DNA of 40,123 nt from a virus (taxonomy: Duplodnaviria; Heunggongvirae; Uroviricota; Caudoviricetes). The translations under genes and the position numbers were made by a program. The notes beneath the pieces are model-generated. The model had not been told where the DNA came from. It made no database searches and saw nothing but the letters and a program-made list of their open reading frames with translations. Location of the stretch: positions 1-40,123 of IMG/VR virus record IMGVR_UViG_2537562231_000015; one strand, 5' to 3'. Of this stretch, positions 2,691 to 40,123 are shown piece by piece; position 1 is the first letter of the stretch; the number at the start of each line of letters is the position of its first letter.

Positions 2691-3036
2691 TCTCTGCTCC
2701 AGTTGATACGGAAAGGGAAACAGGCACACCGTTATTACGCCGCCCGCTCAGCGCCACCACCATTGAACCGTCAAAATTGCTGTTAATGGTGATGGAATCC
2801 AGCGTCAGCCGTGGCTCCCAGCGACTCAGCGCCACATACACTGCCGACATGACCTGCAGGCGTAATGCCGGATTTTGTGGCTGGTCTATTAGCGACGACA
2901 GCAGGGAACCATATTCACGACGAGCAATGCGGCTACCCTGCGGCGTCAGCAGAATGTCCCGCACCGACTGGCGCAGATGGTCAATATCAGTAATGACTTT
3001 GCCGCTGGTATTGTTCATCCCGCTATAAAGCGTCAT
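2677..3036 (-). CDS. W: Baseplate wedge protein W (gp25-like)
   Basis: 119-aa ORF, size and position typical of P2 gpW; overlaps J start. Confidence 0.8.
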   Translation of the reverse strand: MTLYSGMNNTSGKVITDIDHLRQSVRDILLTPQGSRIARREYGSLLSSLIDQPQNPALRLQVMSAVYVALSRWEPRLTLDSITINSNFDGSMVVALSGRRNNGVPVSLSVSTGAENGSD

Positions 3037-3611
3037 ACCGGGCCTCCGGTTGTATCGCCGCCTTTCAGGACGCCAGTATGCTGATGCGCATCAACCACGA
3101 TCCCGTTAGAACTCATCGCTCCGCCGCCCTGGGTAACGCCACCATTGATCACCACTTCGCTGTTAATGCGCGTGCGGTCAGCCTCCAGTACAAACTCACT
3201 GGTTTTCATGGTGATGTTGTCAGCGGCCTCAATGACCATTGATTTGATGCCCCTGACATACCAGCGCCCGGTGGCGGGTTCGTATTCAAACCAGCCACCG
3301 TCAGGATGTTCTGTCACGCAGGCGTCCGCCGACGTCGACGGTGGCGCGAACTGATTCGAATAGATGGCGGGTAACGCAAAGGCGGTTTCCAGATTGCCGC
3401 CCAGACTCAGCAGCACCACCTGCTCACCTTCCGATGGTCGCCACCATGTGCGGGCATTCCCGGCACGCAGCGTCAGCCAGCTGATCCAGTTGGTTTCAAG
3501 CTCGCCCGTTTTCACCCGGCAAAGCCAGTTTTCCCTGTCCACTTCGGTGACTACCCCTGTGCGGATCAGGTTGGTGATAAGGCGCATGATTTCGGTTAAT
3601 TGTGCGTTCAT
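3033..3611 (-). CDS. V: Baseplate spike/assembly protein V
   Basis: 192-aa ORF in V position of the P2 gene order. Confidence 0.8.
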   Translation of the reverse strand: MNAQLTEIMRLITNLIRTGVVTEVDRENWLCRVKTGELETNWISWLTLRAGNARTWWRPSEGEQVVLLSLGGNLETAFALPAIYSNQFAPPSTSADACVTEHPDGGWFEYEPATGRWYVRGIKSMVIEAADNITMKTSEFVLEADRTRINSEVVINGGVTQGGGAMSSNGIVVDAHQHTGVLKGGDTTGGPV

Positions 3612-3679
3612 AGGGAAAGGTTGCCATCAGGGGAAGAAAGGCGGCAGTGCTGCAACTTGTATCAGTGCTGATACAAAGA

Positions 3680-4126
3680 TCACCCCGCCAGCCATTGCAG
3701 AATCATGTCGCGGGTCATTGCCTCAACATCATCATTTACACCCAGCAGGCGGCGCTCTGCGTAACGGACCTCCGGTCCTTTGCGACTGACGCGATCACGC
3801 AGGCCGTAATGGTGAACACGGGCAATACGCTGCACCTTGCCTTCAAACTGTACGCTGGCAGAGTCGGCGCTGGCGGCAGTTTTCAGGTATTTTGTGGTGC
3901 GCAGCTTTGCAAACATCTGACGTTTGATGCGCCCCTTCTTGCTGCGTGCTGTTACCCTGCGCGGTTCATAACTGCTGCCATCTGGATTGCGCTGCATCCT
4001 GATATTCTGCTGCTGTGTCCGGCGCAGTTCCTGCGCCAGCTGGCGCATCATGCGGCTTCTCGTGGCTGGTTCCAGATTCGCCAGCAAGGCACTCAGCCAG
4101 TCGTCCACTTTCTGCAGTTCAGCCAC
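3680..4126 (-). CDS. S: Tail completion protein S
   Basis: 148-aa ORF, synteny R-S-V. Confidence 0.75.
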   Translation of the reverse strand: MAELQKVDDWLSALLANLEPATRSRMMRQLAQELRRTQQQNIRMQRNPDGSSYEPRRVTARSKKGRIKRQMFAKLRTTKYLKTAASADSASVQFEGKVQRIARVHHYGLRDRVSRKGPEVRYAERRLLGVNDDVEAMTRDMILQWLAG

Positions 4127-8653: not shown

Positions 8654-9487
8654 TCAGCAATTGGTCAGAGTGTCAGCGGGGGCGTTACCGCCTGTTGCAC
8701 GCTGGCGGTAGTCCTGGCGGCTGTCTTCATGACTCAGCTTATTCACCAGTTCGTTAAAGGCGGTTTGCTGCTCCTGCAGAGCAGTCTCCAGCTCAGACAG
8801 GCGTTCTTCCTGCTCAGACAGGGATTTTTCGGTGCGTGCGCTCAGGTTCTGCTGCTCAGTGGCGACCAGCTCCACGGCCTTATGCACATCAGAGAACCGG
8901 GCGTCATCGGACTGCTCTTTTTTGGTAAACAGCGCCGTGACACGGGCAAACAGGGACGGCTTGTCCTCCTGGATTTCTTCCAGTTCGATCACCGTTTCCT
9001 CTGCAGCGGTAAAAAGATTGGCGGGATTCTGCTTGCGGTTTGTCAGCGGGTTATGGGCTGCACTGGCGCTGAATGTCAGCATTTCAGTGCCCAGACTGGC
9101 AGGGTCATCAGTGGCCGCCAGGCCGACCAGGTAGGCTTTGCCCGTATCAGCAAACTTCGGGCTGACTTCCATAGATGTGAATAATTTCTGGCCTTTTTTC
9201 ACCAGCTCCACCAGGGACTCCGTTGGCTCAACGTCGGCATACAGCGCCATCTTGCCCGCCAGCGGACCTTCCGTGATTTCTTCAGCAAACAGCGCCGTCA
9301 CCTTGCCGTAGCGGTTAAAGGTGCTGTCCGGCAGATAAGACTTAATGTGCTCAAGGTTAATCAGCGCGGTATACACCGCCGGGTTGTAGCTGGCTGCCAT
9401 CTGTTCCAGCCATTCACGCTGGATTTCACGTCCGTCGGTAGTGGCACCTTCCACCCCGATGCGAAAACGCTTTGCTTTCACTGTCAT
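8654..9487 (-). CDS. O: Capsid scaffolding protein O
   Basis: 277-aa ORF, acidic coiled-coil-like C-terminus, divergent from P. Confidence 0.85.
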   Translation of the reverse strand: MTVKAKRFRIGVEGATTDGREIQREWLEQMAASYNPAVYTALINLEHIKSYLPDSTFNRYGKVTALFAEEITEGPLAGKMALYADVEPTESLVELVKKGQKLFTSMEVSPKFADTGKAYLVGLAATDDPASLGTEMLTFSASAAHNPLTNRKQNPANLFTAAEETVIELEEIQEDKPSLFARVTALFTKKEQSDDARFSDVHKAVELVATEQQNLSARTEKSLSEQEERLSELETALQEQQTAFNELVNKLSHEDSRQDYRQRATGGNAPADTLTNC

Positions 9488-9564
9488 GAGCCGTGCTCCG
9501 TTAGAAAAAACTTACTGGAGCCTTATGGTTGCGGTGATGGGGGCAGTGAAACAATGCGCGGTAT

Positions 9565-9582
9565 TTGTACCGACAACCACAC
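9565..9582. promoter_or_regulatory. TGT-N12-ACA dyad in O/P divergent intergenic region (candidate Ogr-type late activator site)
   Basis: TGTaccgacaaccacACA between the O and P starts; motif also expected by chance about ten times in 40 kb. Confidence 0.3.
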
Positions 9583-9629
9583 AAACCGCAGGCGGGGAAA
9601 GCCTTCATTCAAGGCTGTAGGTTTGTGCC

Positions 9630-11396
9630 ATGAACACCACACTGACACCCGCAGATCTCGATCCCCGTCGGCAGGCCATGCTGCTGTACTTTCAGGGATA
9701 CCGCGTAGCCCGCATTGCTGAAATGCTGGGCGAGAAAGTTGCAACCGTTCACAGCTGGAAAAAACGCGACAAGTGGGGTGACTATGGGCCGCTGGATCAG
9801 ATGCAGCTCACCACCGCCGCACGCTACTGCCAGCTCATCATGAAGGAGCACAAAGAAGGGAAAGATTTCAAAGAGATTGACCTGCTGGCGCGCCAGTCTG
9901 AGCGCCACGCGCGGATCGGCAAGTTTAACAATGGCGGCAACGAAGCCGACTTAAACCCTAACGTCGCCAACCGCAACAAAGGCCCGCGTCGTCAGCCGGA
10001 AAAGAACGTTTTCACTGATGAACAGATTGAGAAGCTGGAAGAAATCTTCCATTCCTCCATGTTCAACTACCAGCGCCACTGGTGGGAAGCCGGAAAAACC
10101 AACCGCATCCGCAACCTGCTGAAGTCACGCCAGATCGGCGCGACCTTTTACTTTGCCCGTGAAGCCCTGATTGACGCCCTGCTTACCGGACGTAACCAGA
10201 TTTTCCTTTCTGCCAGTAAGGCACAGGCTCACGTCTTTAAGCAGTACATCATCGACTTCGCCAAAGAAGTCGAGGTGGAGCTGAAAGGCGATCCGATGGT
10301 GCTTCCTAACGGGGCCACGCTTTACTTCCTCGGCACCAATGCCCGCACGGCCCAGAGTTACCACGGCAACCTGTATCTGGATGAATATTTCTGGATACCG
10401 AAATTCCAGGAGCTGCGCAAAGTGGCTTCCGGTATGGCTATTCACAAAAAATGGCGACAAACCTATTTTTCCACGCCATCCAGCCTGACCCACAGTGCTT
10501 ATCCGTTCTGGTCCGGTGCGCTGTTCAACCGTGGGCGCAACAAAGCCGATAAGGTGGACATCGACCTGTCCCACAGCAATCTGGCCCCCGGCCTGCTGTG
10601 CGCAGACGGGCAATACCGCCAGATAGTCACCGTGGAAGATGCGGTGCGCGGCGGCTGTAACCTGTTCGACCTTGACCAGTTGCGCATGGAGTACAGCCCG
10701 GACGAATACCAGAACCTGCTGATGTGCGAGTTTGTGGACGATCTCGCGTCCGTGTTCCCGCTCAGCGAACTGCAGGCGTGCATGGTGGACAGTTGGGAAG
10801 TCTGGACCGACTTTCATGCACTGGCCCTGCGCCCGTTTGGCTGGCGCGAGGTGTGGATCGGTTATGACCCGGCAAAAGGTACGCAGAACGGCGACAGCGC
10901 CGGATGCGTGGTGGTGGCACCGCCAGCCGTGCCGGGCGGTAAGTTCCGCATTCTTGAGCGTCACCAGTGGCGCGGGATGGACTTCCGCGCCCAGGCTGAC
11001 GCCATCAAAAAACTGACTGAACAGTACAACGTGACCTACATCGGCATCGACTCGACAGGTGTCGGCCACGGGGTTTACGAGAACGTGAAAGCGTTTTTTC
11101 CAGCCGTCCGGGAGTTTGTCTACAACCCCAACGTTAAAAACGCCCTGGTACTCAAGGCCTACGACATTATCAGTCACCGCCGTCTGGAGTTTGACGCCGG
11201 GCACACCGACATTGCGCAGTCATTCATGGCAATCCGTCGCGCAACCACCGCCAGTGGCAACCGCCCAACCTATGAAGCCAGCCGCAGCGAAGAAGCCAGC
11301 CACGCCGATCTGGCTTGGGCAACGATGCACGCACTGTTTAACGAACCGCTGCAGGGCGAGTCCGCCAATACCAGCAATATTGTGGAGATTTTTTGA
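9630..11396 (+). CDS. P: Terminase large (ATPase) subunit P
   Basis: 588-aa ORF; N-terminus resembles P2 gpP (RRQAMLLY..QG.RV..IAE); divergent from O. Confidence 0.9.
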   Translation: MNTTLTPADLDPRRQAMLLYFQGYRVARIAEMLGEKVATVHSWKKRDKWGDYGPLDQMQLTTAARYCQLIMKEHKEGKDFKEIDLLARQSERHARIGKFNNGGNEADLNPNVANRNKGPRRQPEKNVFTDEQIEKLEEIFHSSMFNYQRHWWEAGKTNRIRNLLKSRQIGATFYFAREALIDALLTGRNQIFLSASKAQAHVFKQYIIDFAKEVEVELKGDPMVLPNGATLYFLGTNARTAQSYHGNLYLDEYFWIPKFQELRKVASGMAIHKKWRQTYFSTPSSLTHSAYPFWSGALFNRGRNKADKVDIDLSHSNLAPGLLCADGQYRQIVTVEDAVRGGCNLFDLDQLRMEYSPDEYQNLLMCEFVDDLASVFPLSELQACMVDSWEVWTDFHALALRPFGWREVWIGYDPAKGTQNGDSAGCVVVAPPAVPGGKFRILERHQWRGMDFRAQADAIKKLTEQYNVTYIGIDSTGVGHGVYENVKAFFPAVREFVYNPNVKNALVLKAYDIISHRRLEFDAGHTDIAQSFMAIRRATTASGNRPTYEASRSEEASHADLAWATMHALFNEPLQGESANTSNIVEIF

Positions 11397-12466: not shown

Positions 12467-14248
12467 TTATATTTTAGCAAACGTTTCTAACGCCAAGCTA
12501 TCTGTTCTTTCTTTTATTAATGAATCATCCCATTTATGTTCTCTTGCTTCTGACTCACTAACAAACTCTGTAACTAATTTTAAATCAGATTTTTTATAAG
12601 ATTCTATTTTTTTGTGCAACTCATAATTCTTGCAATCTTCATTAAGTGAAAAACAGAGTGGTAGTAAATTACCAATCATACCCACGACTGACTCGTTAGT
12701 TTTGCTTTGAGATGATATGTGTTCCAAAGAAACTATATCCATTTTTAACTCTCGCGTCCCTCGTCTGATACGTTCCAACTTGTCAAAAATATAAACAATC
12801 AACTTCCTTTGCCCAGACTTTTTATTTGTATAAACAATATTCTTTGAAAATGCTTGTTTGAATATATTTTCTGAAGGCCCTTTCTGTGTAAAATAATCTA
12901 ATGCGTCATTAATAACACCCTCAACATCTCTTTTATTTAATGCCTTATTCATTCTTACTGCTAATACAGAATATTTTGCATCGATTCCAGATGGTCTTAG
13001 ACGACATACTGCATTAAACTTAAAGTGAAATGACTCTAAGGACTTCAAACATTCTATCAGCATTGATTGTGTAAGGGCTCTCGGTTTCTCTTTACGTTTT
13101 CTAAGTAATGAGAGTACAAATGGTCGAGGAATACTCACATTAAAAATCTCGAATGCTTTTAACGAGTTGTAAATTTCACGCTGATCAGGTTGAGGCCAGT
13201 CATCTGTATTTGGCGCTATTATTTTACAGTATAATTCAACATCATCATATAATTCGTTCAGAAATGATGCTGATGACAATAAAGTATTCTCATCTTGAAT
13301 CTCACGTTTAAAAGCACGATAAAGTTGATCTTCTCCAATATAATTATACTTAGAAAGCCACCACGTTCTAATATAATCAGCAATAGTGCTATTACTATCC
13401 CTAGACTCAATTTGAGTAACGATATAATCCCATTTTGTTTTTGCAATATCTACCGGATATGTTTGAGTGCAAGTTTGGAATACTTTATTCTTTATCAAAT
13501 CAATTGAACTTAAGTTTATCCCTCGAGCATTCAACACTTCAAAAATATCATAAGCATCATCCTCCTTACCTACAGATATTTTTACCAACTTCAAATAATT
13601 GGTAATCATTCTATATACAGCAGTCAAACAAAATATATAATCTTGGTTATTATAATGTTTTGCACCATCTCGCAACAATGCAGAACAGAGTGATTTCCTC
13701 CCTAGTTTTCTAGAAAGAAAAATTCCTGCATAACTTATACGTACATCCTCTTCACAAGATTCATCAACTTGATGCTCTTCGCGATCTTGATATTTTAACT
13801 TAAAATATGTTCTATCGCTATTTTTTGCTAATTTTTCAATAAATGTCTCACCATTTGAGGCTAATTGGCTTCTGCTAAATGTAGGACTCACAGTAACGAT
13901 ATATGTTTTAAATATATCATCCGCTAATGAATCTTGCCCTAAGGAACGCAATTTACGCGATATTAATGAAAGCAATATAGTAATAACTGAAAATCGTTGT
14001 TGTCCATCAACCACTTCTAATACATCATCACTATCTGCTCCAGAAAGAACAATAGTCCCTATAAAATATTCTGAACACTCCAAGTTCTGTCCATCTTCAT
14101 TCAACCTTATGTTTCTGACAATATCTTGCCATAATTCTTCAAGCTGAAGCTTTTCCCAACTAAACTCACGTTGATTACGTGGAATAACATATCTTTGTTT
14201 TACAGATAGAATGTTTTTTATATTTAGTGGTGTTGCATCAAAATTCAT
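12467..14248 (-). CDS. GmrSD-family (DUF262/ParB-like N-terminal, DUF1524-like C-terminal) putative modification-dependent nuclease
   Basis: 593-aa ORF; N-terminal YVIPRNQREFSW and VVDGQQR motifs typical of DUF262; C-terminal LEHI...GNLLPL resembles the DUF1524 His-Me finger; markedly AT-rich versus flanking phage genes. Confidence 0.65.
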   Translation of the reverse strand: MNFDATPLNIKNILSVKQRYVIPRNQREFSWEKLQLEELWQDIVRNIRLNEDGQNLECSEYFIGTIVLSGADSDDVLEVVDGQQRFSVITILLSLISRKLRSLGQDSLADDIFKTYIVTVSPTFSRSQLASNGETFIEKLAKNSDRTYFKLKYQDREEHQVDESCEEDVRISYAGIFLSRKLGRKSLCSALLRDGAKHYNNQDYIFCLTAVYRMITNYLKLVKISVGKEDDAYDIFEVLNARGINLSSIDLIKNKVFQTCTQTYPVDIAKTKWDYIVTQIESRDSNSTIADYIRTWWLSKYNYIGEDQLYRAFKREIQDENTLLSSASFLNELYDDVELYCKIIAPNTDDWPQPDQREIYNSLKAFEIFNVSIPRPFVLSLLRKRKEKPRALTQSMLIECLKSLESFHFKFNAVCRLRPSGIDAKYSVLAVRMNKALNKRDVEGVINDALDYFTQKGPSENIFKQAFSKNIVYTNKKSGQRKLIVYIFDKLERIRRGTRELKMDIVSLEHISSQSKTNESVVGMIGNLLPLCFSLNEDCKNYELHKKIESYKKSDLKLVTEFVSESEAREHKWDDSLIKERTDSLALETFAKI

Positions 14249-22018: not shown

Positions 22019-23050
22019 ATGACCATCAGAAAACAGCCGAACGGAAAATGGTTGTGTGAGTGCTATCCCAATGGACGCAATGGCAAGCGCGTGCGTAAGC
22101 AATTTGCCACGAAAGGCGAAGCCATTGCGTTTGAAAGCTTCACAATGGAAGAAGTGAATAAAAAACCGTGGTTGGGTGAAAAGGATGATCGGCGACGCCT
22201 ATCAGAATTAATTGAGCTTTGGTATTCCCTGTATGGTCAGACACTCGCAGACCCCAAGCGCCTCATGGCGAAACTTAGAATTATCTGTAATGGTCTAGGC
22301 GACCCCATCGCCTCTGAGCTGACAGCCGGAGACTTTACGAAATACCGCGAAGCACGGTTAAAAGGTGAAATACGAAATGAAGATGGCACGCTTATGTCGC
22401 CCGTTAAGCCCCGCACGGTAAACCTTGAACAGCGCAATCTATCATCGGTGTTCGGTACATTAAAAAAACTAGGACACTGGTCAGCACCAAACCCGCTGGC
22501 AGGACTTCCGACCTTCAAAATTGCCGAAGGTGAGCTGGCTTTTCTTTCCACGGACGAAATCAAGCGCCTGTTGGCGGCATGTGCTGAATCTCAAAGCCCT
22601 AGCTTACTAATGATTGCAAAAATATGCCTAGCTACTGGCGCACGGTGGAGTGAAGCAGAAAATCTGCAGGGCCATCAGTTATCCAAATACCGCATCACTT
22701 ATACCAAGACGAAGGGCAAGAAAAACCGTACCGTGCCAATATCTCAGGATCTTTACAACGAACTCCCTAAAAACAGAGGAAGGCTATTCACCCCATGCAG
22801 AAAAGCCTTTGAACGGGCAGTAAAACGAGCTGGTATTGAACTGCCAGAGGGACAATGCACCCACGTTCTACGCCATACATTCGCCAGCCATTTCATGATG
22901 AACGGCGGAAACATACTGGTACTGCGCGATATTTTGGGCCATGCCGATATAAAAATGACGATGATTTACGCCCATTTTTCTCCAGACCATCTGGAAGATG
23001 CAGTAACGAAAAACCCTTTGAACTTTATATACTTGTCGAATAACATGTAA
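22019..23050 (+). CDS. int: Tyrosine integrase (P2/186 type)
   Basis: 343-aa ORF; C-terminal HVLRHTFASHFMMNGG...LGHADIKMTMIYAHF catalytic motifs. Confidence 0.9.
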   Translation: MTIRKQPNGKWLCECYPNGRNGKRVRKQFATKGEAIAFESFTMEEVNKKPWLGEKDDRRRLSELIELWYSLYGQTLADPKRLMAKLRIICNGLGDPIASELTAGDFTKYREARLKGEIRNEDGTLMSPVKPRTVNLEQRNLSSVFGTLKKLGHWSAPNPLAGLPTFKIAEGELAFLSTDEIKRLLAACAESQSPSLLMIAKICLATGARWSEAENLQGHQLSKYRITYTKTKGKKNRTVPISQDLYNELPKNRGRLFTPCRKAFERAVKRAGIELPEGQCTHVLRHTFASHFMMNGGNILVLRDILGHADIKMTMIYAHFSPDHLEDAVTKNPLNFIYLSNNM

Positions 23051-23072: not shown

Positions 23073-24086
23073 GTGATCTTAATCTTAAATATGAAACCTA
23101 ATTTAATTTCACGTAAACAGTACCAACACCTCAAAAATGAGTTAAATAGACTTGAGAGCTTACCATATAGACGAGGAAACAACCCAACCAACCTCAGAAT
23201 ATTAAAACTAAGAGAAGATCTAACAAACTCTCTTGTTGAATCCAGAAAAAGAAATTCAAAAAAAATTAATAGAGGAAATGTTAGCTGTATAATATGCAAG
23301 AAAAATTTCAAAAGTGCTCATGGCCTATATGAGCACTATCGCGCCAAGCATAGCAATATGATTGAACACCCTACCTCATTGTTTAATAAAGAAATAAATG
23401 GCAATACAACACTGCTTGAAAGCATTTCGCATCCTGTCACAAAAGGTATACCAATAGCAGAACACGATAAAAAAATATCATCCATTACGCTAAACAGGGA
23501 AACTAAATATTTCAATGTAGATGCGTATAATCTGGCATGCCTTTCATTAACAAAAAGTGAAGCAATAAAAATCGCTAAAGATGAATTATTATCAAGGCAG
23601 TTTCTTGGACAAAAAAACATTCTAGAACCTACTCTACCGCCAGTCATATTTATAAATCCCTCTGATACAATTAGTATACCAGTTGTCACAAAAGGCAATA
23701 CTCATCTGCAAACAATATTACAGCGTGACTCTGGCGAACAGGTTGACTTTAAAAAAAGGGTTCTAAAAAACTTCTCAAATGTATGCGCAATAACAGGTTA
23801 CAACCTCCCAGTATTGCAGGCATGTCACCTTGAACCATTTTCTCAGACCCAAAACCATAGAACCAACAATGGAATACCTCTTGAACCTACCCTTCATGCC
23901 TTGCTTGACCGAGGTCTACTAGCCATACATCCAGATAATTTAACTATTCATTTTGCTATCGATTGCTATTACAAAAATATATATGAAGGAAAAAACATCA
24001 AACCTCATAAGATTGATTTAGATAAAAATTCACTGCTAATAATTTGGAAGAACTTTCTTTTGAATGTTAAAAACAGCCAACCGTAA
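23073..24086 (+). CDS. Zinc-finger plus HNH-like nuclease domain protein (cargo gene)
   Basis: 337-aa AT-rich ORF; C2H2-like CIICKKNF..HGLYEHYRAKH near N-terminus; C-terminal CAITGYN...QACHLEPF...NGIPL...HALLDRGLLAI resembles HNH (HNH_2-like) fold. Confidence 0.55.
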   Translation: MILILNMKPNLISRKQYQHLKNELNRLESLPYRRGNNPTNLRILKLREDLTNSLVESRKRNSKKINRGNVSCIICKKNFKSAHGLYEHYRAKHSNMIEHPTSLFNKEINGNTTLLESISHPVTKGIPIAEHDKKISSITLNRETKYFNVDAYNLACLSLTKSEAIKIAKDELLSRQFLGQKNILEPTLPPVIFINPSDTISIPVVTKGNTHLQTILQRDSGEQVDFKKRVLKNFSNVCAITGYNLPVLQACHLEPFSQTQNHRTNNGIPLEPTLHALLDRGLLAIHPDNLTIHFAIDCYYKNIYEGKNIKPHKIDLDKNSLLIIWKNFLLNVKNSQP

Positions 24087-24417: not shown

Positions 24418-25051
24418 CCAATTCATGAAGGAGCGGCCAAATTGGCAAGAACGACACGCCCCCTGACCAACACAGAAGTACTGCGCGCTAAAGCGTTAGA
24501 AAAGGATCTAACGTTGCATGATGGCGATGGTCTTTTTCTACTCGTTAAAACGAACGGTAAGAAGTTATGGCGTTTCCGTTATCAACGTCCGGCAACAAAG
24601 CAACGGACAATGATGGGGCTAGGAGCCTTCCCAGCCCTTTCACTTGCTGACGCCCGACGCTTAAGAGCGGATTACCTTTCCTTGTTAGCCAACGGAATTG
24701 ACCCGCAAATTCAAGCTGAAATTGCAGAGGAACAGCAGCAAATCGCACAGGACAGTATTTTCTCGACGGTCGCCGCTAATTGGTTTCAGCTCAAAAGCAA
24801 AAGTGTTACCCCTGATTATGCAAAAGATATTTGGCGCTCATTGGAAAAAGATGTATTCCCCGCCGTTGGTGAGATGCCCGTTCAGCAGATCAAAGCTAGA
24901 ACATTGGTCGAAGCACTTGAGCCAGTCAAAGCTCGTGGGGCATTAGAGACTGTACGTCGTCTGGTGCAACGCATTAACGAAATAATGATTTATGCGGTTA
25001 ACACTGGCTTGATTGATGCAAACCCAGCATCAGGTGGGTAATGACTCCAAC

Positions 25052-25749: not shown

Positions 25750-26411
25750 TGGAGCACCTCAAAAACACCATCATACACTAAATCAGTAAGTTGGCAGCAT
25801 CACCCATCAGGTGTTGGCATGGCCTTCGAAAAGCCAAAAAAACAAAACATGCCGACGCTTCGACCTGAAGAATTACCAAAGCTGATGCGTTCTTTAGTCA
25901 TGTCAAATCTGTCTATCCCGACTCGCTGTCTAATTGAATGGCAACTCCTGACTCTTGTGCGCCCTTCTGAAGCCTCCAGTACTCGGTGGGAAGAAATCGA
26001 TCTTCATGCAAAGCTCTGGACGATTCCTGCCGAACGGATGAAGGCTAAACGGGAACACATAATTCCTCTATCATCTCAGGCATTAGAGATTCTTAATGTG
26101 ATGAAGCCTATTAGTGCTCATCGTGAATATGTTTTTCCGAGTCGGAATGACCCAAAGAAACCAATGAACAGTCAGACTGCAAATGCAGCTTTAAAACGTA
26201 TTGGTTTTGGCGGAAAATTAGTTGCCCATGGATTACGTTCAATAGCAAGTACAGCCATGAATGAAGCTGGATTAAATCCTGATGTTATCGAGTCTGCCTT
26301 AGCCCACAGTGATAAAAATGAAGTTAGAAAAGCATACAATCGTTCTACTTATCTCGTGCAGCGAATTGAATTGATGGATTGGTGGGGAGAATACGTTAAA
26401 AATAAAAGGGG

Positions 26412-28121
26412 TTAGCCCCCCTTTTTTCTATACAATCTCAAGCACTCGTCCAATTCAATAAGTTGTGAATTACTTAATCGTTCTTTTATATAATAAAATA
26501 CATCTTTTACTGAAGCAATTTCTCTCATCGCTCTATTGCCCATTAAAACATAGTCTTGATACATTCCAATTCTGAAGAATGAATTTGCTGCGCAAGCCAA
26601 CATAATTACTTCGGTCATTGCAGGGAGATTTAAACGATTTGGCTTAAATTTATTTTTATCATATTCGTTAAAACAAGACAAAAAGTTTCTCAATGTTTTT
26701 ATATCAGCAATACCATTTGAAACATTAGTAAATGATTTATATAAATATGGAGAGCATGAATACCAATATATATCACAAACAAGTATAGAACTTCGCTTGT
26801 TCGCAAACTCAAGCCATTCACCCTTATTTCCATTATGCATTAAGTTATATAAGAAATAAAAATGCAACAACCCATTTTTATATTCTTTTTTGGATTGATC
26901 ATAGATTATCTCAATTTTGTCCATGATAGACTGCAAATCAGTGACTTCGCCTAAATTTAACATATTTAGGTATTCACTAAACCACTTCGCTATACTTTTA
27001 GCTGTAAATCCGTCTGCATTCCAGAGCCAATATTGTGCAGATATCTCTGCAACCATTACACCCGATGTTTCCATCACCCAATTAACAGACTCTCTTTTTT
27101 GACTGTAGTTTTTACGGCAAAAATTTATTATCACATGGCGAAGAAGTCGAAGCAATCCAGAGTAACTGAAGTGAGGTTCGCCAAAAAGAACCAGACAATC
27201 ACCAACAGGATTGTAGGCTTTCGAGATCATTGCATCAAGTGGCTTAAGCTCATGGACAAAAGAAGACCTGATTTTGTATAAATTATCTAAAGCTCTACTA
27301 AGGAAGCTATAGCGGATTGGATATCTCTCTGTTTCATTGAAATAATTTTCTTCAAGATTTTTCAGTATAAAATCTTTGAACCTTTTTTGTAATCTGAATT
27401 GTTTGCCTTCAATAAGTATTGATTTAATTTTACAAACATCCTCACCAGGCATATGCTCAAATACAGACTCTAATTCACCTCTGGTTTTTTGATCGTAGTC
27501 ATCCCAATCAGACTTATAGTTATCATTTCTTTGAGACAAAGACTCCAAGGCATAGACTAACATGGAATAAGTCAGGTCAAAGTTGGTTGACAATGATTCT
27601 TTTGAATCACTAATTATTTTTAACGCTGCCATTAAAGATTTAAAGGCAGATCTATTTAGATTCACTACATCTTTAATAAAAGCAGAAAACCCAGAGACAT
27701 CATCAAATGAAACTCTTCGATTAATCTCCACTAAATATGGGGCAACTTCAAGCGCAATTTTTGAGTGATGTTTATTAAAATTTGATAATGCACATATTTT
27801 TTTAACCGATTCTTTTTCTACTCTAGCCACACAATCAAAATAGAATTCCCATAATAAAATAAATTGTTGCCTATAATCCTCATCACCAGCCCTAACTACG
27901 ACTCCAGCTTCAATTCGTTCTGGTTTTTCGGTCAGGAGAGTATAGTTTACCACATAACAGTTTATACCATCATGACTTATTTTATTTGCTTTAAAAAGAG
28001 GGGAGGTGTTTTCCACCGAGAAAGACACATCAACATTTGAATAAAAAACAAATGTGCCATCGTGTTTTTCTATTTTATCTAAATCAAAGAACACTCCAGC
28101 TGATATCTGAAACATACTCAT
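26412..28121 (-). CDS. Hypothetical 569-aa protein in the P4 int-cos variable slot (candidate anti-phage defence)
   Basis: Long AT-rich ORF with no recognised family; contains an R-x4-H motif (RSSFVH); sits where P4 carries gop/beta/cII. Confidence 0.6.
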   Translation of the reverse strand: MSMFQISAGVFFDLDKIEKHDGTFVFYSNVDVSFSVENTSPLFKANKISHDGINCYVVNYTLLTEKPERIEAGVVVRAGDEDYRQQFILLWEFYFDCVARVEKESVKKICALSNFNKHHSKIALEVAPYLVEINRRVSFDDVSGFSAFIKDVVNLNRSAFKSLMAALKIISDSKESLSTNFDLTYSMLVYALESLSQRNDNYKSDWDDYDQKTRGELESVFEHMPGEDVCKIKSILIEGKQFRLQKRFKDFILKNLEENYFNETERYPIRYSFLSRALDNLYKIRSSFVHELKPLDAMISKAYNPVGDCLVLFGEPHFSYSGLLRLLRHVIINFCRKNYSQKRESVNWVMETSGVMVAEISAQYWLWNADGFTAKSIAKWFSEYLNMLNLGEVTDLQSIMDKIEIIYDQSKKEYKNGLLHFYFLYNLMHNGNKGEWLEFANKRSSILVCDIYWYSCSPYLYKSFTNVSNGIADIKTLRNFLSCFNEYDKNKFKPNRLNLPAMTEVIMLACAANSFFRIGMYQDYVLMGNRAMREIASVKDVFYYIKERLSNSQLIELDECLRLYRKKGG

Positions 28122-28595: not shown

Positions 28596-29168
28596 TTACA
28601 CAGACTGACGTGATGCCAGTTGCGCACTTTTACGCGAAAAAATCATGTTCTGCGCAGGGGTGAATTTTTCACGGCTGTCATCCACCGAAGCCGCGTCAGG
28701 CCTGAATCCGATGGTCGTTAAAATGTCGCTATCCTGTGCGGAATAATTAATTTTTTCACCCTTCGCAAGCCAGGACAGGAGGGCTTCACGCAGGGCATCT
28801 GTGGCACGCTGTATGGCACAGTTTCGGGCAATGGCCGTCAGATCACTGTAGCCCATCAGCTCCGGTGCCAGTGCCGCCGCCAGTGCTGTGCCGTGCTGCT
28901 GCATAAAATCATTCAGCCGGTCGCGGATGCTGATGTGCTGAACGGCTTCATGCGAACGAATATAACGACCGGCGGCCTGATTCACCTGCCATTTTCTGAC
29001 TTCGATAATATTGCGTAATTCGTCCAGGCGACTGACGTTTCTGCCTTCTCCTGACAGAAGCCGCAGATATTCCTGTTCGGCCGCAGCCAGCTCATTTTTG
29101 CGTTGCAGCCATGCTGCTTTGTTATTCTGACAGGTGTCAAAGGCCTGCTGTAAGGCTGTGCTTTCCAT
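28596..29168 (-). CDS. psu: Psu (polarity suppression / capsid decoration) protein
   Basis: 190-aa ORF, same length as P4 Psu, in the sid-delta-psu-cos arrangement. Confidence 0.85.
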   Translation of the reverse strand: MESTALQQAFDTCQNNKAAWLQRKNELAAAEQEYLRLLSGEGRNVSRLDELRNIIEVRKWQVNQAAGRYIRSHEAVQHISIRDRLNDFMQQHGTALAAALAPELMGYSDLTAIARNCAIQRATDALREALLSWLAKGEKINYSAQDSDILTTIGFRPDAASVDDSREKFTPAQNMIFSRKSAQLASRQSV

Positions 29169-29241: not shown

Positions 29242-29742
29242 TCATTCCAGACGCAGCGAATATGATTGTGTTTTTAACCGTACTGGCGGCAGTTCCTGTT
29301 TTTCATGCAGGCGTTCTGCCAGTTCGTCCGGCGTGACCGGGCGGACAATGAAGCGGGTGATGGTCTGAAGCGTTTTAAACACCAGACCACAGCCCGGATC
29401 CGTGCACACATAAAAACGCTCGGTGACTTCCTGAGACAGACGCCGCGATGTTCTTGACAGTGCAAGGCCTTTACATCTCCGACAACAATATCCGGTAACA
29501 AGCATTCTTTTCGGGCGTTTCATACTGCCGGAGGCCGACGTCAGTGAATCGCGGTATCTCTGTTTGCCTGAAATGTATTCCATTCCTGAATCTTTACTGT
29601 CAGAGAAAAAGCTTTCACTCGCTTCAAATGTCGCAGAGCAATAAATATTCCGGCACTGTGCAATCATTATCTTGGTGCCATCGTCCATGAAATGTGCGCG
29701 ACGGGTGTGAGCAACATGTCCACACGACGGGCAGTAAATCAT
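29242..29742 (-). CDS. delta: Delta late-gene transactivator (tandem Ogr-like zinc finger)
   Basis: 166-aa ORF starting MIYCPSCGH with C-x2-C...C-x4-C pattern, a second Cys cluster further on; same length as P4 Delta. Confidence 0.85.
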   Translation of the reverse strand: MIYCPSCGHVAHTRRAHFMDDGTKIMIAQCRNIYCSATFEASESFFSDSKDSGMEYISGKQRYRDSLTSASGSMKRPKRMLVTGYCCRRCKGLALSRTSRRLSQEVTERFYVCTDPGCGLVFKTLQTITRFIVRPVTPDELAERLHEKQELPPVRLKTQSYSLRLE

Positions 29743-30473
29743 GACAGCAGTCCTCTGGCCTTAAGCTCTGCTCCCTGCTGGTCTATTTTGTCCTGCCACA
29801 CCTTGCGCTGTGCCGGTGTGCCTGCCACCTCATAATCCATGTGCGGGAGTGTTGCCGCTGACAGTCCGGTCAGCCGGAGAACCGGCTCGCCGGTGAGGCT
29901 GATTTGCATCTGTTTAATTTTCTGTTCCAGCGATGATTTCACCTGCTGCATGACAGCCTTTTCCGGTGCGACGTAGCCCTGATGGCCGGTGGTGTTGGCG
30001 AGCGGATTTTCCTGTACCAGGATACTCAGATGCATTGCCCGGACAAGCGCCTCACAGGTTTCATTCAGGGCGTGTTCCAGCTCATGCTCTGCATACAGAC
30101 TCAGAAGGTGATGATGTGCCTTCCGGTAGGCGGTGGCCGTGCTGTCACACGCCCCTTTCAGGCGTTCACGTTCAAAATTCAGCACCACGGCCAGATTGTC
30201 ATATTCCTGTACCAGCTCCCGGCGTGCCACGCGCTCAATGTGGCGCTGTTTCAGCTCGTCGCTCAGGACACCACCGGCTGCACGAAAGGCTGTGCGCCAG
30301 TCATCAGCGTCATTTCCGTCGGCCTGCGCCAGCGCATTTTTTTCCTGCTCTGCCCGTTCAATGGCCTTGACGGTCTCATCCATCAGTCGGGCGTTCTCAA
30401 GATGAGCGGCTCTGGCCTTTTCCAGTTGTGCCAGTGCGGGTTGCAGATATTCAGGGATGGTGTTGTCAGACAT
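29739..30473 (-). CDS. sid: Sid capsid size-determination protein
   Basis: ORF 29739..30491 trimmed to MSDNTIPEYLQ (244 aa, P4 Sid length); overlaps delta start. Confidence 0.85.
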   Translation of the reverse strand: MSDNTIPEYLQPALAQLEKARAAHLENARLMDETVKAIERAEQEKNALAQADGNDADDWRTAFRAAGGVLSDELKQRHIERVARRELVQEYDNLAVVLNFERERLKGACDSTATAYRKAHHHLLSLYAEHELEHALNETCEALVRAMHLSILVQENPLANTTGHQGYVAPEKAVMQQVKSSLEQKIKQMQISLTGEPVLRLTGLSAATLPHMDYEVAGTPAQRKVWQDKIDQQGAELKARGLLS

Positions 30474-30516
30474 TTTCCGGCTCCTCGTCACTTCAGATTA
30501 AGAAAATTGTGACGTA

Positions 30517-30573
30517 CACCGGACAACAACACGACGCATTGCAGATGTGCCAGCCCTGACACAGGAGACTCAT
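30517..30573. promoter_or_regulatory. Two TGT-N12-ACA dyads in the sid upstream region (candidate Delta/Ogr sites for Psid and a divergent late promoter)
   Basis: TGTgacgtacaccggACA at 30517-30534 and TGTgccagccctgacACA at 30556-30573. Confidence 0.35.
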
Positions 30574-30770: not shown

Positions 30771-31025
30771 TACTACTGTTTGTTTTTATTAATTCGCCGT
30801 GAATGAATAAGAAGAAACGATTTGTATTTCACTATAAAAATTACGAATTGCATTAAGTGGCTTTAAATGACTTTAAGTGGGAATGAACAAAAAACACACA
30901 GTCATTGTAAGGCTGCCGGAACAAATCCCCCCTGTTGCGTCTGCCAAAAATATTCACAAAATAAAGCGCTACCCGAAGCCGGACGGACTTATCCGGTGCT
31001 GTATGGACATTAACGAGGTAGCCCG

Positions 31026-31292
31026 ATGCAAGCTGTTTTTTCTTCCCCGTCTCCCGCCCCTGTGACGCCACTGATGCCGCTGCCGGACATCACGCAGGAG
31101 CGTTTTTTACGTCTGCCGGAAGTGATGCACCTGTGCGGCCTGTCACGCTCGACCATCTATGAACTCATCCGTAAGGGGGAATTTCCGCCGCAGGTGAGTC
31201 TTGGCGGTAAAAATGTGGCCTGGCTGCACTCTGAAGTCACCGCATGGATGGCCGGACGCATTGCCGGACGCAAACGGGGGTACGACGCATGA
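31026..31292 (+). CDS. vis: Vis/AlpA-family excision regulator (P4 orf88 equivalent)
   Basis: 88-aa ORF with AlpA-like HTH ([27 protein letters not shown]); GAGGTAG SD. Confidence 0.75.
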
Positions 31293-31843: not shown

Positions 31844-32100
31844 TAAAAAAGCCCCTCAGACCGTCTCAGCACGTCATGACGCCCGTGAACACCTCAGCAT
31901 TGAGGCTTACCATAAGCTCAACCGCGCCAGCGCCGTATCCCAGTTTGTTGGGGGTGATTTGATTCACCGTGAACTCTCCGGCCTGCATCAGCTCTACATT
32001 CCGCATATTTTCAGCGTAAGCGTAAACTGACCGCCGTATGTAGCCATCAGACGAGAATTGGTAACTTAGACGCCCATCTGATATAGACGGACATCTAAGT

Positions 32101-32526
32101 ATGGAATTACAGGACTGGCGAAAAGAACCTCGTAAAAACTATTCGAATGAATTCAAACTTCGTATGGTGGAACTGGCATCACAACCTGGAGCTTGTGTTG
32201 CACAGATTGCACGTGAAAATGGCGTCAATGATAATGTTATTTTCAAATGGCTCAGGCTCTGGCAGAACGAAGGGCGTGTTTCGCGGCGTCTTCCGGTAAC
32301 GACCTCTTCTGACACTGGCGTTGAATTATTACCTGTAGAAATAACGCCGGATGAGCAGAAAGAACCTGTGGCGGCCATTGCGCCGTCTTTATCCACTTCC
32401 ACTCAGACCAGAGTCAGTGCCAGTTCCTGCAAGGTGGAATTCCGTCACGGTAACATGACGCTGGAAAATCCATCGCCAGAGCTGCTCACAGTGTTGATCC
32501 GTGAACTGACCGGGAGGGGAAGATGA
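32101..32526 (+). CDS. IS66-family accessory protein (orf1/TnpA)
   Basis: 141-aa ORF, first gene of the IS66 three-gene array. Confidence 0.8.
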   Translation: MELQDWRKEPRKNYSNEFKLRMVELASQPGACVAQIARENGVNDNVIFKWLRLWQNEGRVSRRLPVTTSSDTGVELLPVEITPDEQKEPVAAIAPSLSTSTQTRVSASSCKVEFRHGNMTLENPSPELLTVLIRELTGRGR

Positions 32527-32873
32527 TCTCACTCCCATCAGGTACCCGTATCTGGCTCGTTGCCGGCGTTACCGATATGCGTAAATCCTTCAACGGACTG
32601 GGAGAACAGGTACAACATGTGCTGAATGATAATCCCTTCTCCGGTCACCTGTTTATCTTCCGTGGCCGACGGGGTGACACCGTCAAAATTCTTTGGGCTG
32701 ATGCTGATGGTCTGTGCCTGTTCACCAAACGCCTGGAGGAAGGCCAGTTTATCTGGCCTGCGGTACGTGACGGCAAGGTATCCATTACCCGCTCGCAACT
32801 GGCAATGCTCCTCGATAAGCTGGACTGGCGTCAGCCAAAAACATCCAGCCGTAACTCACTGACAATGTTGTAA
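32523..32873 (+). CDS. IS66-family Orf2 (TnpB)
   Basis: 116-aa ORF overlapping orf1 stop; conserved IS66 orf2 size. Confidence 0.85.
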   Translation: MISLPSGTRIWLVAGVTDMRKSFNGLGEQVQHVLNDNPFSGHLFIFRGRRGDTVKILWADADGLCLFTKRLEEGQFIWPAVRDGKVSITRSQLAMLLDKLDWRQPKTSSRNSLTML

Positions 32874-32903
32874 AAAACTCCTGACCGCATTATAAAAACG
32901 GTC

Positions 32904-34517
32904 ATGAGTCAGAAATACCTCATTCGCATCGCAGAGCTGGAAAGGTTGCTCTCTGAGCAGGCTGAAGCCCTCCGTCAGAAAGACCAGCAACTGAGTCTGG
33001 TTGAAGAGACGGAAGCCTTCCTGCGCTCTGCACTGACACGTGCCGAAGAAAAGATCGAAGAAGATGAACGGGAAATAGAACATCTGCGGGCTCAGATAGA
33101 AAAACTGCGCCGGATGCTGTTCGGTACCCGTTCTGAAAAACTGCGTCGTGAAGTTGAACTGGCTGAGGCTCTGCTGAAACAACGTGAACAGGACAGCGAT
33201 CGTTACAGTGGGCGGGAAGACGATCCTCAGGTTCCCCGCCAGTTGCGACAGTCGCGCCATCGTCGTCCGTTACCGGCACACCTTCCCCGTGAAATACACC
33301 GCCTGGAGCCAGAAGAAAGCTGTTGCCCGGAGTGTGGCGGTGAGCTGGATTATCTGGGGGAAGTCAGCGCTGAACAGCTGGAACTGGTGAGCAGTGCCCT
33401 GAAAGTGATCCGCACAGAACGGGTAAAAAAAGCCTGTACAAAATGTGACTGTATTGTTGAAGCACCGGCGCCGTCCCGCCCGATAGAGCGTGGTATCGCG
33501 GGCCCCGGATTACTTGCCCGCGTGTTAACGGGAAAATACTGCGAACATCTGCCACTGTATCGTCAGAGTGAAATCTTTGCCCGCCAGGGTGTCGAACTGA
33601 GCCGGGCCTTACTCTCCAACTGGGTTGACGCGTGCTGCCAGTTAATGACACCGGTGAATGATGCCCTGTACCGTTATGTAATGAACACCCGCAAGGTTCA
33701 CACTGATGACACACCGGTAAAGGTACTGGCACCGGGTCAGAAAAAGGCGAAAACAGGGCGTATCTGGACGTATGTCCGGGATGATCGCAATGTGGGTTCG
33801 TCATCTCCTCCAGCGGTCTGGTTCGCGTACTCGCCGAACCGGCAGGGGAAACACCCGGAGCAACACCTCCGCCCCTTCCGGGGTATCCTGCAGGCGGATG
33901 CGTTCACAGGTTACGACAGGTTGTTCAGTGCAGAACGTGAAGGTGGTGCACTGACAGAAGTTGCGTGCTGGGCCCATGCCCGGCGAAAAATCCACGATGT
34001 ATACATCAGCAGCAAAAGTGCGACGGCAGAAGAAGCCCTGAAGCGAATCAGTGAACTGTACGCCATCGAGGATGAAATACGGGGATTACCGGAGTCAGAG
34101 CGTCTTGCCGTCAGGCAGCAGCGAAGCAAAGTGTTACTGACGTCGCTGCATGAATGGATGGTGGAGAAGAATGGTACGCTGTCGAAAAAATCCAGACTGG
34201 GCGAAGCGTTCAGCTATGTACTGAATCAGTGGGATGCCCTCTGTTATTACAGTGATGACGGTCTGGCGGAGGCGGATAATAATGCTGCGGAAAGAGCGCT
34301 TCGTGCAGTCTGTCTCGGAAAGAAAAACTTTATGTTCTTTGGCAGCGATCACGGCGGCGAGCGTGGAGCACTGTTGTACGGGCTGATCGGCACCTGCCGT
34401 CTGAACGGTATCGATCCGGAAGCGTATCTGCGCCATATCCTGAGCGTACTGCCGGAATGGCCTTCCAACCGAGTTGACGAACTCCTGCCATGGAACGTAG
34501 TACTCACCAATAAATAA
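32904..34517 (+). CDS. IS66-family transposase (TnpC)
   Basis: 537-aa ORF with N-terminal coiled coil, zinc-finger-like CPECGG and C-terminal DDE region. Confidence 0.9.
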   Translation: MSQKYLIRIAELERLLSEQAEALRQKDQQLSLVEETEAFLRSALTRAEEKIEEDEREIEHLRAQIEKLRRMLFGTRSEKLRREVELAEALLKQREQDSDRYSGREDDPQVPRQLRQSRHRRPLPAHLPREIHRLEPEESCCPECGGELDYLGEVSAEQLELVSSALKVIRTERVKKACTKCDCIVEAPAPSRPIERGIAGPGLLARVLTGKYCEHLPLYRQSEIFARQGVELSRALLSNWVDACCQLMTPVNDALYRYVMNTRKVHTDDTPVKVLAPGQKKAKTGRIWTYVRDDRNVGSSSPPAVWFAYSPNRQGKHPEQHLRPFRGILQADAFTGYDRLFSAEREGGALTEVACWAHARRKIHDVYISSKSATAEEALKRISELYAIEDEIRGLPESERLAVRQQRSKVLLTSLHEWMVEKNGTLSKKSRLGEAFSYVLNQWDALCYYSDDGLAEADNNAAERALRAVCLGKKNFMFFGSDHGGERGALLYGLIGTCRLNGIDPEAYLRHILSVLPEWPSNRVDELLPWNVVLTNK

Positions 34518-34655
34518 GCGTCAATACGGTGCTCCGTTGACGCTTACTTTTCAGCTACCTGAATGAAGATATTGATTTTGTGCTGAATGAGCTGAAAGCC
34601 AAAGGCCTGTGCCGCGATTTTCTCGCCCAGCAGAAAGACCGGGGAGACAGGACGC

Positions 34656-35246: not shown

Positions 35247-35567
35247 ATGAAAACACCCTTACCGCCCGTCTTACGCGCTGCCCTTTACCGTCGCGCTGTC
35301 GCCTGTGCCTGGCTGACCGTGTGCGAACGTCAGCACCGCTACCCGCATCTCACCCTTGAGTCACTGGAGGCGGCCATCGCCGCTGAGCTGGAAGGCTTTT
35401 ATCTGCGCCAGCACGGTGAGGAAAAAGGGCGTCAGATAGCCTGTGCCCTGCTGGAAGATTTAATGGAATCCGGCCCCCTGAAGGCCGCGCCGTCGCTGTC
35501 CTTTCTCGGGCTGGTTGTGATGGATGAACTCTGTGCCCGTCACATAAAAGCGCCGGTACTGCACTGA
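35247..35567 (+). CDS. P4 orf106-like protein
   Basis: 106-aa ORF directly upstream of alpha. Confidence 0.55.
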
Positions 35568-39353: not shown

Positions 39354-40123
39354 GTAAGCGACTCGTCAGAACCGTATTGATATTTACTGAGAGCTCAGAT
39401 CAACTTTCCAGGGCAACAGATCGCGTACCCGGTTTGCCGGCCAGTCCTGGATATGTTCAATGACGTAACGCAGCCACTTTTCTGGCTCCACATTGTTCAG
39501 ACGGCATGTGCCGATCAGCGAGTACAACACCGCCGCATGTTCACCACCGCTGTCGGAACCCGCGAACAGCCAGTTTTTCCGGCCTACGGCCACTCCCCGT
39601 AAGGCGTTCTCTGCGATGTTGTTGTCGATTTCCACCCAGCCATTACTGCAGTACACGTTCAGGGCCTCCCACTGTTTCAGCAGGTATGCGAACGCTTTTG
39701 CCGTATCCGAGTGACGCGACAGTGTTTTCATCTGAGTCTGTATCCAGTCATACAGTGACTGCATCAGTGGCGCAGCTCTGGCTTTTCTTGCTGCCAGACG
39801 CTGTTCTGCTGAACATCCCCGGACTTCTGCCTCGATGGCATACAGTTCACCGATACGCTGCAGGGCTTCCGTGGTGATATCGGTTGGCGCTCTTGCATGC
39901 ACATCGTGGATTTTTCTCCGGGCATGGGCCATACACGCGGCTTCCGTTATTCTGCCGGATTCGTATAACGCCCGGTAGCCACCGTAAGCATCGGCCTGAA
40001 GCACTCCGCTGTAACCGGCCAGGTGATTTTGTGGATGGATGCCTTTCCGGTCCGGGCTGTACGCGAACCAGACCGCCGCAGGCATCTGTGAACCGGCGTT
40101 ACGGTCATCACGGACGTAGACCC
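39354..40123 (-). mobile_element. Second IS66-family element, partial (runs off window)
   Basis: Terminal GTAAGCG... at 39354 located 30 bp beyond the transposase stop, same geometry as the first IS66 copy. Confidence 0.8.
39384..40123 (-). CDS. IS66-family transposase C-terminal portion (partial at window edge)
   Basis: Translation aligns with the C-terminal part of the TnpC at 32904-34517 but is clearly divergent. Confidence 0.85.

Follow-up and report, generated by a model that had tools for sequence, protein, structure and literature searches.

In the P2-like prophage studied here, the late genes O and P diverge from a short intergenic region that carries a single activator-type dyad, raising the question of whether one symmetric element can serve two promoters that face in opposite directions. 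The DNA analysed, referred to below as the window, is the whole stretch of 40,123 nt that makes up IMG/VR virus record IMGVR_UViG_2537562231_000015. The reading at which we arrive, and to which we assign a probability of about 0.85, is that the O/P dyad is a shared Ogr/B/Delta-type activator site for both divergent late promoters. Judged by its sequence, the region is an ordinary representative of the Ogr/B/Delta-dependent late-promoter class, of the bidirectional PO/PP subtype: all features that mark this class at the sequence level were found, namely the dyad itself, a site before each of P, O and V, a single site midway between the divergent genes, and conservation in relatives.

The P2-like prophage fills the left 24 kb of the window and is oriented opposite to the P2 map. 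Its genes are arranged in the order I, J, W, V, S, R, lysis genes, X, L, M, N, O, P and Q, followed after Q by replication genes, cII, apl, cI and then int (22019–23050); the immunity region is of the CI/Apl/CII type. Gene O (8654–9487, minus strand), which encodes the capsid scaffold/protease (Pfam Phage_GPO, E-value 9e-114), heads the O operon, while gene P (9630–11396, plus strand) encodes the large terminase (Pfam Terminase_5/6N/6C). Further to the left lie V (3033–3611, minus strand; Pfam Phage_base_V plus Apex) and S (3680–4126, minus strand; from the ORF list). The database records that come closest are those of Escherichia phage Cartapus (Elveevirus) and 500465-1, with 98–99.6% identity around the O/P spacer; next come many Klebsiella P2-like phages at about 98% and then, at lower identity, Felsduovirus phages (SEN8, 95%; SopEPhi, 89%). 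The variable cargo slot just past the portal gene Q is occupied by an ORF for a 593-residue GmrSD-type (type IV restriction-like) protein (12467–14248, minus strand; Pfam GmrSD_N plus GmrSD_C; PADLOC HEC-06/Orf5), where Cartapus has another gene. Another cargo ORF (23073–24086, plus strand; 337 residues, weak HNH match) adjoins the prophage int. Scanning for tRNA genes as attachment sites gave none within the window.

Together, the ORF list and the sequence delimit the O/P intergenic control region to the 142 bp from 9488 to 9629, in which two divergent late promoters are predicted; the same spacer length is found in Cartapus, Fels-2, SopEPhi and SEN8. Within it lies an exact match to TGT-N12-ACA, TGTACCGACAACCACACA, at 9566–9583 (centre 9574.5), a putative Ogr/B/Delta-type activator site. 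The preliminary description had placed this dyad at 9565–9582; the dyad is indeed present, one base further along. It extends to TTGT-N12-ACAA at 9565–9584, with half-sites TTGT at 9565–9568 and ACAA at 9581–9584. When the spacer was searched for a second activator site with at least five of the six TGT/ACA bases, only a shadow of the same dyad, shifted by 2 nt, was recovered; this bears out the earlier count of one activator-type dyad, and P2 and 186 also annotate one each. The dyad centre lies 55.5 nt from the P ATG and 87.5 nt from the O ATG, and the window, Cartapus, Fels-2, SopEPhi and SEN8 all have one TGT-N12-ACA at these same two distances. Moreover, a promoter scan of 9400–9720 found no sigma-70 consensus-like promoter, which fits activator dependence.

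A dyad-anchored comparison of the spacers of the window, Cartapus, Fels-2, 186, PSP3 and P2 revealed a single site in each. The P2 record (AF063097) carries one "activator binding site; pO, pP promoters" at 3057–3087, whose centre is separated by about 55.5 nt from the start of the P transcript (3016) as well as from that of the O transcript (3127). Similarly, the 186 record (NC_001317) carries one "B protein" site at 3798–3817, for "activation of pV and p12 promoters". Across P2 and 186, the annotated start-to-site-centre distances range from 55 to 58.5 nt. As one site is thus annotated for both promoters in P2 and in 186, the single dyad in the window is not anomalous; one dyad for two promoters is the documented design of the family. 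The proposal that the O/P region is a divergent PO/PP late-promoter region agrees with these homologous P2 and 186 sites and with conservation in relatives, and the comparison with P2 PO, PP and PV suggested in the preliminary description finds the dyads at homologous positions and distances. By BLAST, the spacer DNA gave no alignment to P2, and P2-type records matched only the P coding part of the query.

Several other elements in and around the spacer were considered and set aside. An exact TGT-N12-ACA at 9624–9641, spanning the P start codon, is not conserved (variants read TGG or TGA) and was taken as a chance or coding coincidence. The inverted repeats CACAAACC (9580–9587) and GGTTTGTG (9620–9627) lose their pairing in relatives, as do AGCCTT (9600–9605) and AAGGCT (9611–9616). 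Of two terminator-like matches, one (9559–9572, minus strand) is not conserved in SEN8, and the other (9669–9683, plus strand) falls within the P coding sequence.

Conservation was examined in 79 IMG/VR loci of the window's lineage, which yielded 57 distinct spacer variants. Invariant in all 57 are TTGT, ACAA, the TA...T of the predicted PP hexamer, the A and T at key positions of the predicted PO hexamer, and the ATG. The N12 and the flanks vary, all spacings are fixed, and there are zero indels between the dyad and the ATG. The dyad is conserved in Elveevirus, Felsduovirus and Gegevirus relatives, and a Klebsiella Gegevirus shares the window layout provided that P is taken to begin at an in-frame ATG further upstream. 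On the annotation side, the P start of Klebsiella phage ST258-KPC3phi16.1 (positions 627–638) is probably placed 9 nt too far downstream; starting from an in-frame ATG that lies three codons further upstream brings the protein into line with other gpP N-termini, and this ATG occupies the 55.5-nt position. In a Yersinia phage, the dyad lies 56.5 nt from the P ATG.

On the P side, dyad-anchored alignment with P2, in which the PP start is mapped, and with 186 points to TAGGTT (9618–9623, plus strand) as the −10-like hexamer of PP. This hexamer, which reads TATGTT in relatives, aligns under the PP −10 TAGCCT of P2 and 186 at an equal distance from the dyad; nothing resembling a −35 element of PP was seen in the window. 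TAGGTT is followed by six bases and then by the P ATG at 9630, so that the A of the ATG is the predicted PP +1. An in-frame stop codon, TAG at 9618–9620 within the hexamer, bounds the P ORF, and the gpP N-terminus aligns from this ATG with those of P2, 186, Yersinia and Ralstonia, including a conserved DPRRQA at residues 11–16. ATG 9630 is therefore the sole possible start of P. No conserved Shine-Dalgarno sequence precedes P in the 57 variants, the TAGG of the window being TATG or TATT in relatives. On the basis of this layout, we consider it moderately likely that the P mRNA of the window is leaderless and starts at the A of the AUG. In E. coli, leaderless mRNAs are as a rule translated inefficiently, which makes such an arrangement slightly odd for an essential terminase gene. 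P2 itself is among the phages with a leaderless gene (PMC4633059). In the P2 GenBank record, the V transcript start is the first base of the V CDS.

Upstream sequences of P were then surveyed across P2-like prophages, which were retrieved from IMG/VR and from a set of one genome per species by searching with the gpP N-terminus and fell into 58 P-upstream clusters; the IMG/VR scan with the N-terminus of the window P gave close relatives only, and RSA1-ordered and P2-ordered scans added diversity. Thirty of the 58 clusters have a TAnnnT that begins at −12 relative to the P ATG, in a further 12 it begins at −13 or −14, and about 30–42 of the 58 share the hexamer-to-ATG geometry of the window. TAnnnT at −35 or −34 together with a Shine-Dalgarno sequence, the P2/186 type, is found in only about seven, and a P leader of 22–23 nt is confined to a minority of clusters that includes P2 and 186. 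Perfect dyads cluster at 55–58 nt from the P ATG. TGT-N13-ACA is the form used in many distant lineages, and in both spacing classes the proximal half-site ends 47 nt from the P ATG. Distant prophages belonging to at least 10 genera show the same succession of hexamer, six nucleotides and ATG. These observations suggest that P is probably leaderless not only in the window prophage but also in most beta- and gamma-proteobacterial P2-like prophages, in which case the leader of P2, 186 and PSP3 would be a derived insertion. In prophages of Cupriavidus, Ralstonia, Chromobacterium, Halomonas, Burkholderia, Pectobacterium, Photorhabdus and others, P mostly starts 6 nt past TAnnnT, and the centre of TGT-N13-ACA is mostly 56–57 nt from that start.

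The main rival to a leaderless P holds that transcription starts a few bases from the ATG or that a short leader has gone unrecognised. Put more fully, the dyad would be real but the P mRNA would start further upstream or from another promoter, with GTAGG at 9617–9621 as a weak ribosome-binding site. Such an arrangement could draw on the AGG that precedes the ATG of the window by 8 nt, on the 23-nt leader with GAGG that P2 and 186 use, and on the spread of 55 to 58.5 nt in their site-to-start distances, which indicates that the geometry is not rigid. However, for GTAGG to be exposed in the transcript, the start would have to lie so far upstream that the activator site would fall at about −40 or closer, a position seen in no mapped promoter of the family. 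Moreover, GTAGG is not conserved, reading GTATG or GTATT in close relatives, whereas the TA...T hexamer 6 nt before the ATG is conserved and the same layout returns in the distant genera of the survey. We therefore regard a leadered P as unlikely.

On the O side, the sequence offers a −35-like hexamer, TTGTTT (9549–9554, minus strand), as a putative PO element; on the plus strand its ACAA is invariant in the 57 variants. The −10-like hexamer AACCAT (9525–9530, minus strand), 18 bp past the −35-like element, was assigned by dyad-anchored alignment, in which it falls under the PO hexamer GAAACT of P2 and 186. A Shine-Dalgarno sequence of O, GGAG (9496–9499, minus strand), lies 8 nt before the ATG at 9487. 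Taken together, these elements would place the PO start near 9516–9519, with an O leader of about 30 nt. The choice of PO hexamer (AACCAT, CAACCA or CATAAG) shifts the predicted start by up to 4 nt, and the core promoter elements are weak matches, so that exact starts are uncertain by a few bases. In distant P2-like prophages, a conserved CAAC or CAAT flanks the dyad on its O side at a distance of about 10 nt, in a position like that of the TTG of a PO −35.

The elements on the two sides also bear on whether the dyad might serve only one of the promoters, the other having a cryptic, degenerate site or being activator-independent. PO has a recognisable −35-like TTG and might thus have basal activity, and degenerate sites are known in the family, as in the 11-bp spacing of P2 pV and the P2 and 186 PO/PP sites with five of six bases. 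Nevertheless, we consider this arrangement improbable, given that the spacer holds no second site at five or more of the six bases, that the two −10-like hexamers lie at nearly equal distances on either side of the dyad, their starts being 43.5 nt (PP) and 44.5 nt (PO) away from its centre, and that the curators of P2 and 186 gave both promoters one site.

A related dyad lies upstream of V. The 68-bp gap between S and V contains a perfect 20-bp palindrome, TTGTATCAGTGCTGATACAA, at 3657–3676 (core 3658–3675, centre 3666.5), the predicted PV activator site; it is unique in the window, with 0 expected. The perfect palindrome reported earlier upstream of V, at 3658–3675, is thus confirmed, that range being the TGT-N12-ACA core of the 20-mer. 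In the window, Cartapus and Fels-2, the centre of the PV dyad lies 55.5 nt from the V ATG, which equals the annotated site-to-start distance of P2 pV. The −10-like hexamer CAACCT (3618–3623, minus strand), also present in Cartapus and Fels-2, is positioned 6 nt before the V ATG at 3611, the predicted +1. Cartapus has a different PV dyad (TGTGTCATTTACCACACA) at an unchanged distance of 55.5 nt from the ATG. Its S-V interval (9255–9785, vs 3612–3679 in the window) holds an extra reverse-strand ORF, like P2 orf30, where the window has only the 68-bp gap. The palindrome was also considered as an intrinsic terminator of the O operon and rejected, as no T-run follows it. The remaining late operon (F...D) is not part of the window; in Cartapus and Fels-2, a site precedes FI.

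Bare TGT-N12-ACA is not enriched in the window (10 matches, vs 9.85 ± 2.8 in shuffled sequences), so that the count alone is no evidence and it is position and conservation that give the motif meaning. Both dyad centres lie exactly 55.5 nt from an ATG, that of P at 9630 and that of V at 3611; by our own arithmetic, with about 2.5e-4 matches per position and about 45 genes, some 0.01 such placement coincidences are expected. That the TGT-N12-ACA of the spacer is a chance match without function, as the unremarkable count and the chance-like exact match nearby at 9624–9641 might suggest, is highly improbable in view of half-sites that stay invariant in the 57 variants while their neighbours vary, a position homologous to the annotated P2 and 186 sites, and a distance to the start codon that is identical for P and V.

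As for the protein that would bind these sites, the window encodes no ogr of its own prophage, since its left end falls in the tail-fibre region and ogr lies beyond. Cartapus, which is 97–99% identical, encodes a 72-residue Ogr_Delta protein (PF04606) after gene D. The only Ogr/Delta-family activator encoded within the window is the Delta protein of a P4 satellite (29242–29742, minus strand), which has 166 residues and two tandem Ogr-like domains, recovered as two tblastn hits with Cartapus Ogr and matching the transcriptional regulator family phrog_603. Between 28432 and 38260, the window matches P4 (NC_001609) at 98% identity over the stretch that runs from cos to crr, and it contains intact psu (28596–29168), delta (29242–29742) and sid (29739–30473), as well as ORF88 (31026–31292), orf106 (35247–35567) and alpha (35582–37915). 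Three of the ten TGT-N12-ACA matches are P4 late-promoter sites, located at 30508–30525 and 30546–30563 (Psid) and at 30906–30923 (PLL, upstream of ORF88). Upstream of sid, the two sites are separated by 38 bp and centred 43.5 and 81.5 nt away from its ATG, a geometry identical to that in P4. Late-gene expression in P2 and P4 is promoted by Delta as well as by Ogr (PMC8628076), so that the O/P and V dyads may plausibly be targeted by the resident satellite too, with Delta as a candidate trans-activator of the PO/PP and PV sites.

The satellite region shows further peculiarities. An IS66-family element (32016–34547; ORFs 32101–32526, 32523–32873 and 32904–34517, transposase phrog_688) interrupts P4 epsilon, which acts in helper derepression; the insertion flanks match P4 positions 7996 and 8003, and a second, truncated copy of the IS66 transposase lies at the right end of the window (39384–40085). 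The P4-type integrase, 35–37% identical to P4 Int, is split into two parts (24442–25041 and 25819–26415) with about 0.8 kb of inserted DNA between them. It begins about 200 bp past the last P2-like homology (at about 24257), indicating that prophage and satellite lie in tandem. The P4 cos-proximal slot, in which P4 has gop, beta and cII, is taken up by a cargo ORF of 569 residues (26412–28121, minus strand) with a weak ApeA-like match.

Returning to the shared dyad, we suggest that late in infection a small C4 zinc-finger activator of the Ogr/B family, or the Delta protein of the satellite, would bind the dyad centred at 9574.5. In P2, the bound activator recruits RNA polymerase via the C-terminal domain of the alpha subunit. 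Both core promoters would be weak alone, with the dyad about 55–56 nt upstream of each. Being symmetric and midway, the dyad would allow the activator to serve PO leftward as well as PP rightward. Rightward transcription from PP would cover P and Q, and leftward transcription from PO would cover O, N, M, L, X, the lysis genes, R and S, while the sister site at 3657–3676 would act likewise for V, W, J and I. The functional part of this scheme, comprising activator binding, activator dependence and start sites, is one that we infer by homology and geometry.

The analysis assigns a late-promoter architecture to widespread P2-like prophages of Escherichia, Klebsiella and Salmonella (Elveevirus, Felsduovirus), whose records are without regulatory features. 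The constrained bases of PO/PP, that is TTGT/ACAA, the TA...T of each −10 and the fixed spacing, present a target for mutagenesis of how one activator serves two polymerases. If the prediction for P holds true, the terminase gene would be a second conserved leaderless late gene among the few in enterobacterial phages, and two of the four late operons in this lineage, P-Q and V-G, would begin leaderless, hinting at translation-level control or timing. An intact Delta gene is also found beside a helper-type prophage within 40 kb, and this proximity suggests that the sites described here are likely a point of satellite-helper cross-talk in the strain.

Compared with known systems, the region most resembles P2 in its divergent O and P genes, in one partially symmetric site midway between them and about 55 nt from each start, in a PP −10 of the TAG..T type at equal distance from the site, and in a sister site 55.5 nt before a leaderless V. 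Unlike the P2 site, which is imperfect (TGG...ACA / TGT...CCA), that of the window is a full TGT-N12-ACA, and the spacer measures 142 bp as opposed to 173 bp in P2. The P2 dyad is 95.5 nt from the O ATG, vs 87.5 nt in the window, 186 and PSP3. In P2, 186 and PSP3, the dyad centre lies 78.5 nt from the P ATG, corresponding to 55.5 nt plus a 23-nt leader with GAGG, whereas in the window it lies 55.5 nt away; in P2, P thus has a 23-nt leader with GAGG and O a 40-nt leader, while the P ATG of the window sits at the predicted +1 and its O leader would be about 30 nt. P2 V provides the closest parallel for that start: as in V of the window, and by geometry in P, the predicted +1 is the A of the ATG; a −10-like hexamer precedes it by 6 nt, and a Shine-Dalgarno sequence is lacking. 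Unlike P2 V, the leaderless P of the window is a prediction only, and P2's own P is leadered.

With 186, the window shares one site for both divergent promoters, a distance of 87.5 nt from the site centre to the ATG of the O homologue, and a CI/Apl/CII-type immunity region. It differs in that the 186 site has five of six bases (TGG...ACA), in the 23-nt leader on the P homologue orf12, and in the −10 hexamers, which are TAGCCT and GAAACT in 186. A literature search for published transcription-start maps covering Fels-2 or SopEPhi gave none usable. In Smp131, PP' and PO' have been described on the same 18 bp (PMC3931495). The P4 promoters Psid and PLL, which are Delta/Ogr-dependent, depart from the O/P arrangement of the window in being unidirectional and having leaders, and Psid has two sites, 38 bp apart. 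These paired Psid sites are reportedly the −55 and −18 sites. In common with the O/P region, both P4 promoters have the same TGT-N12-ACA type of site and belong to the same cross-activating regulon.
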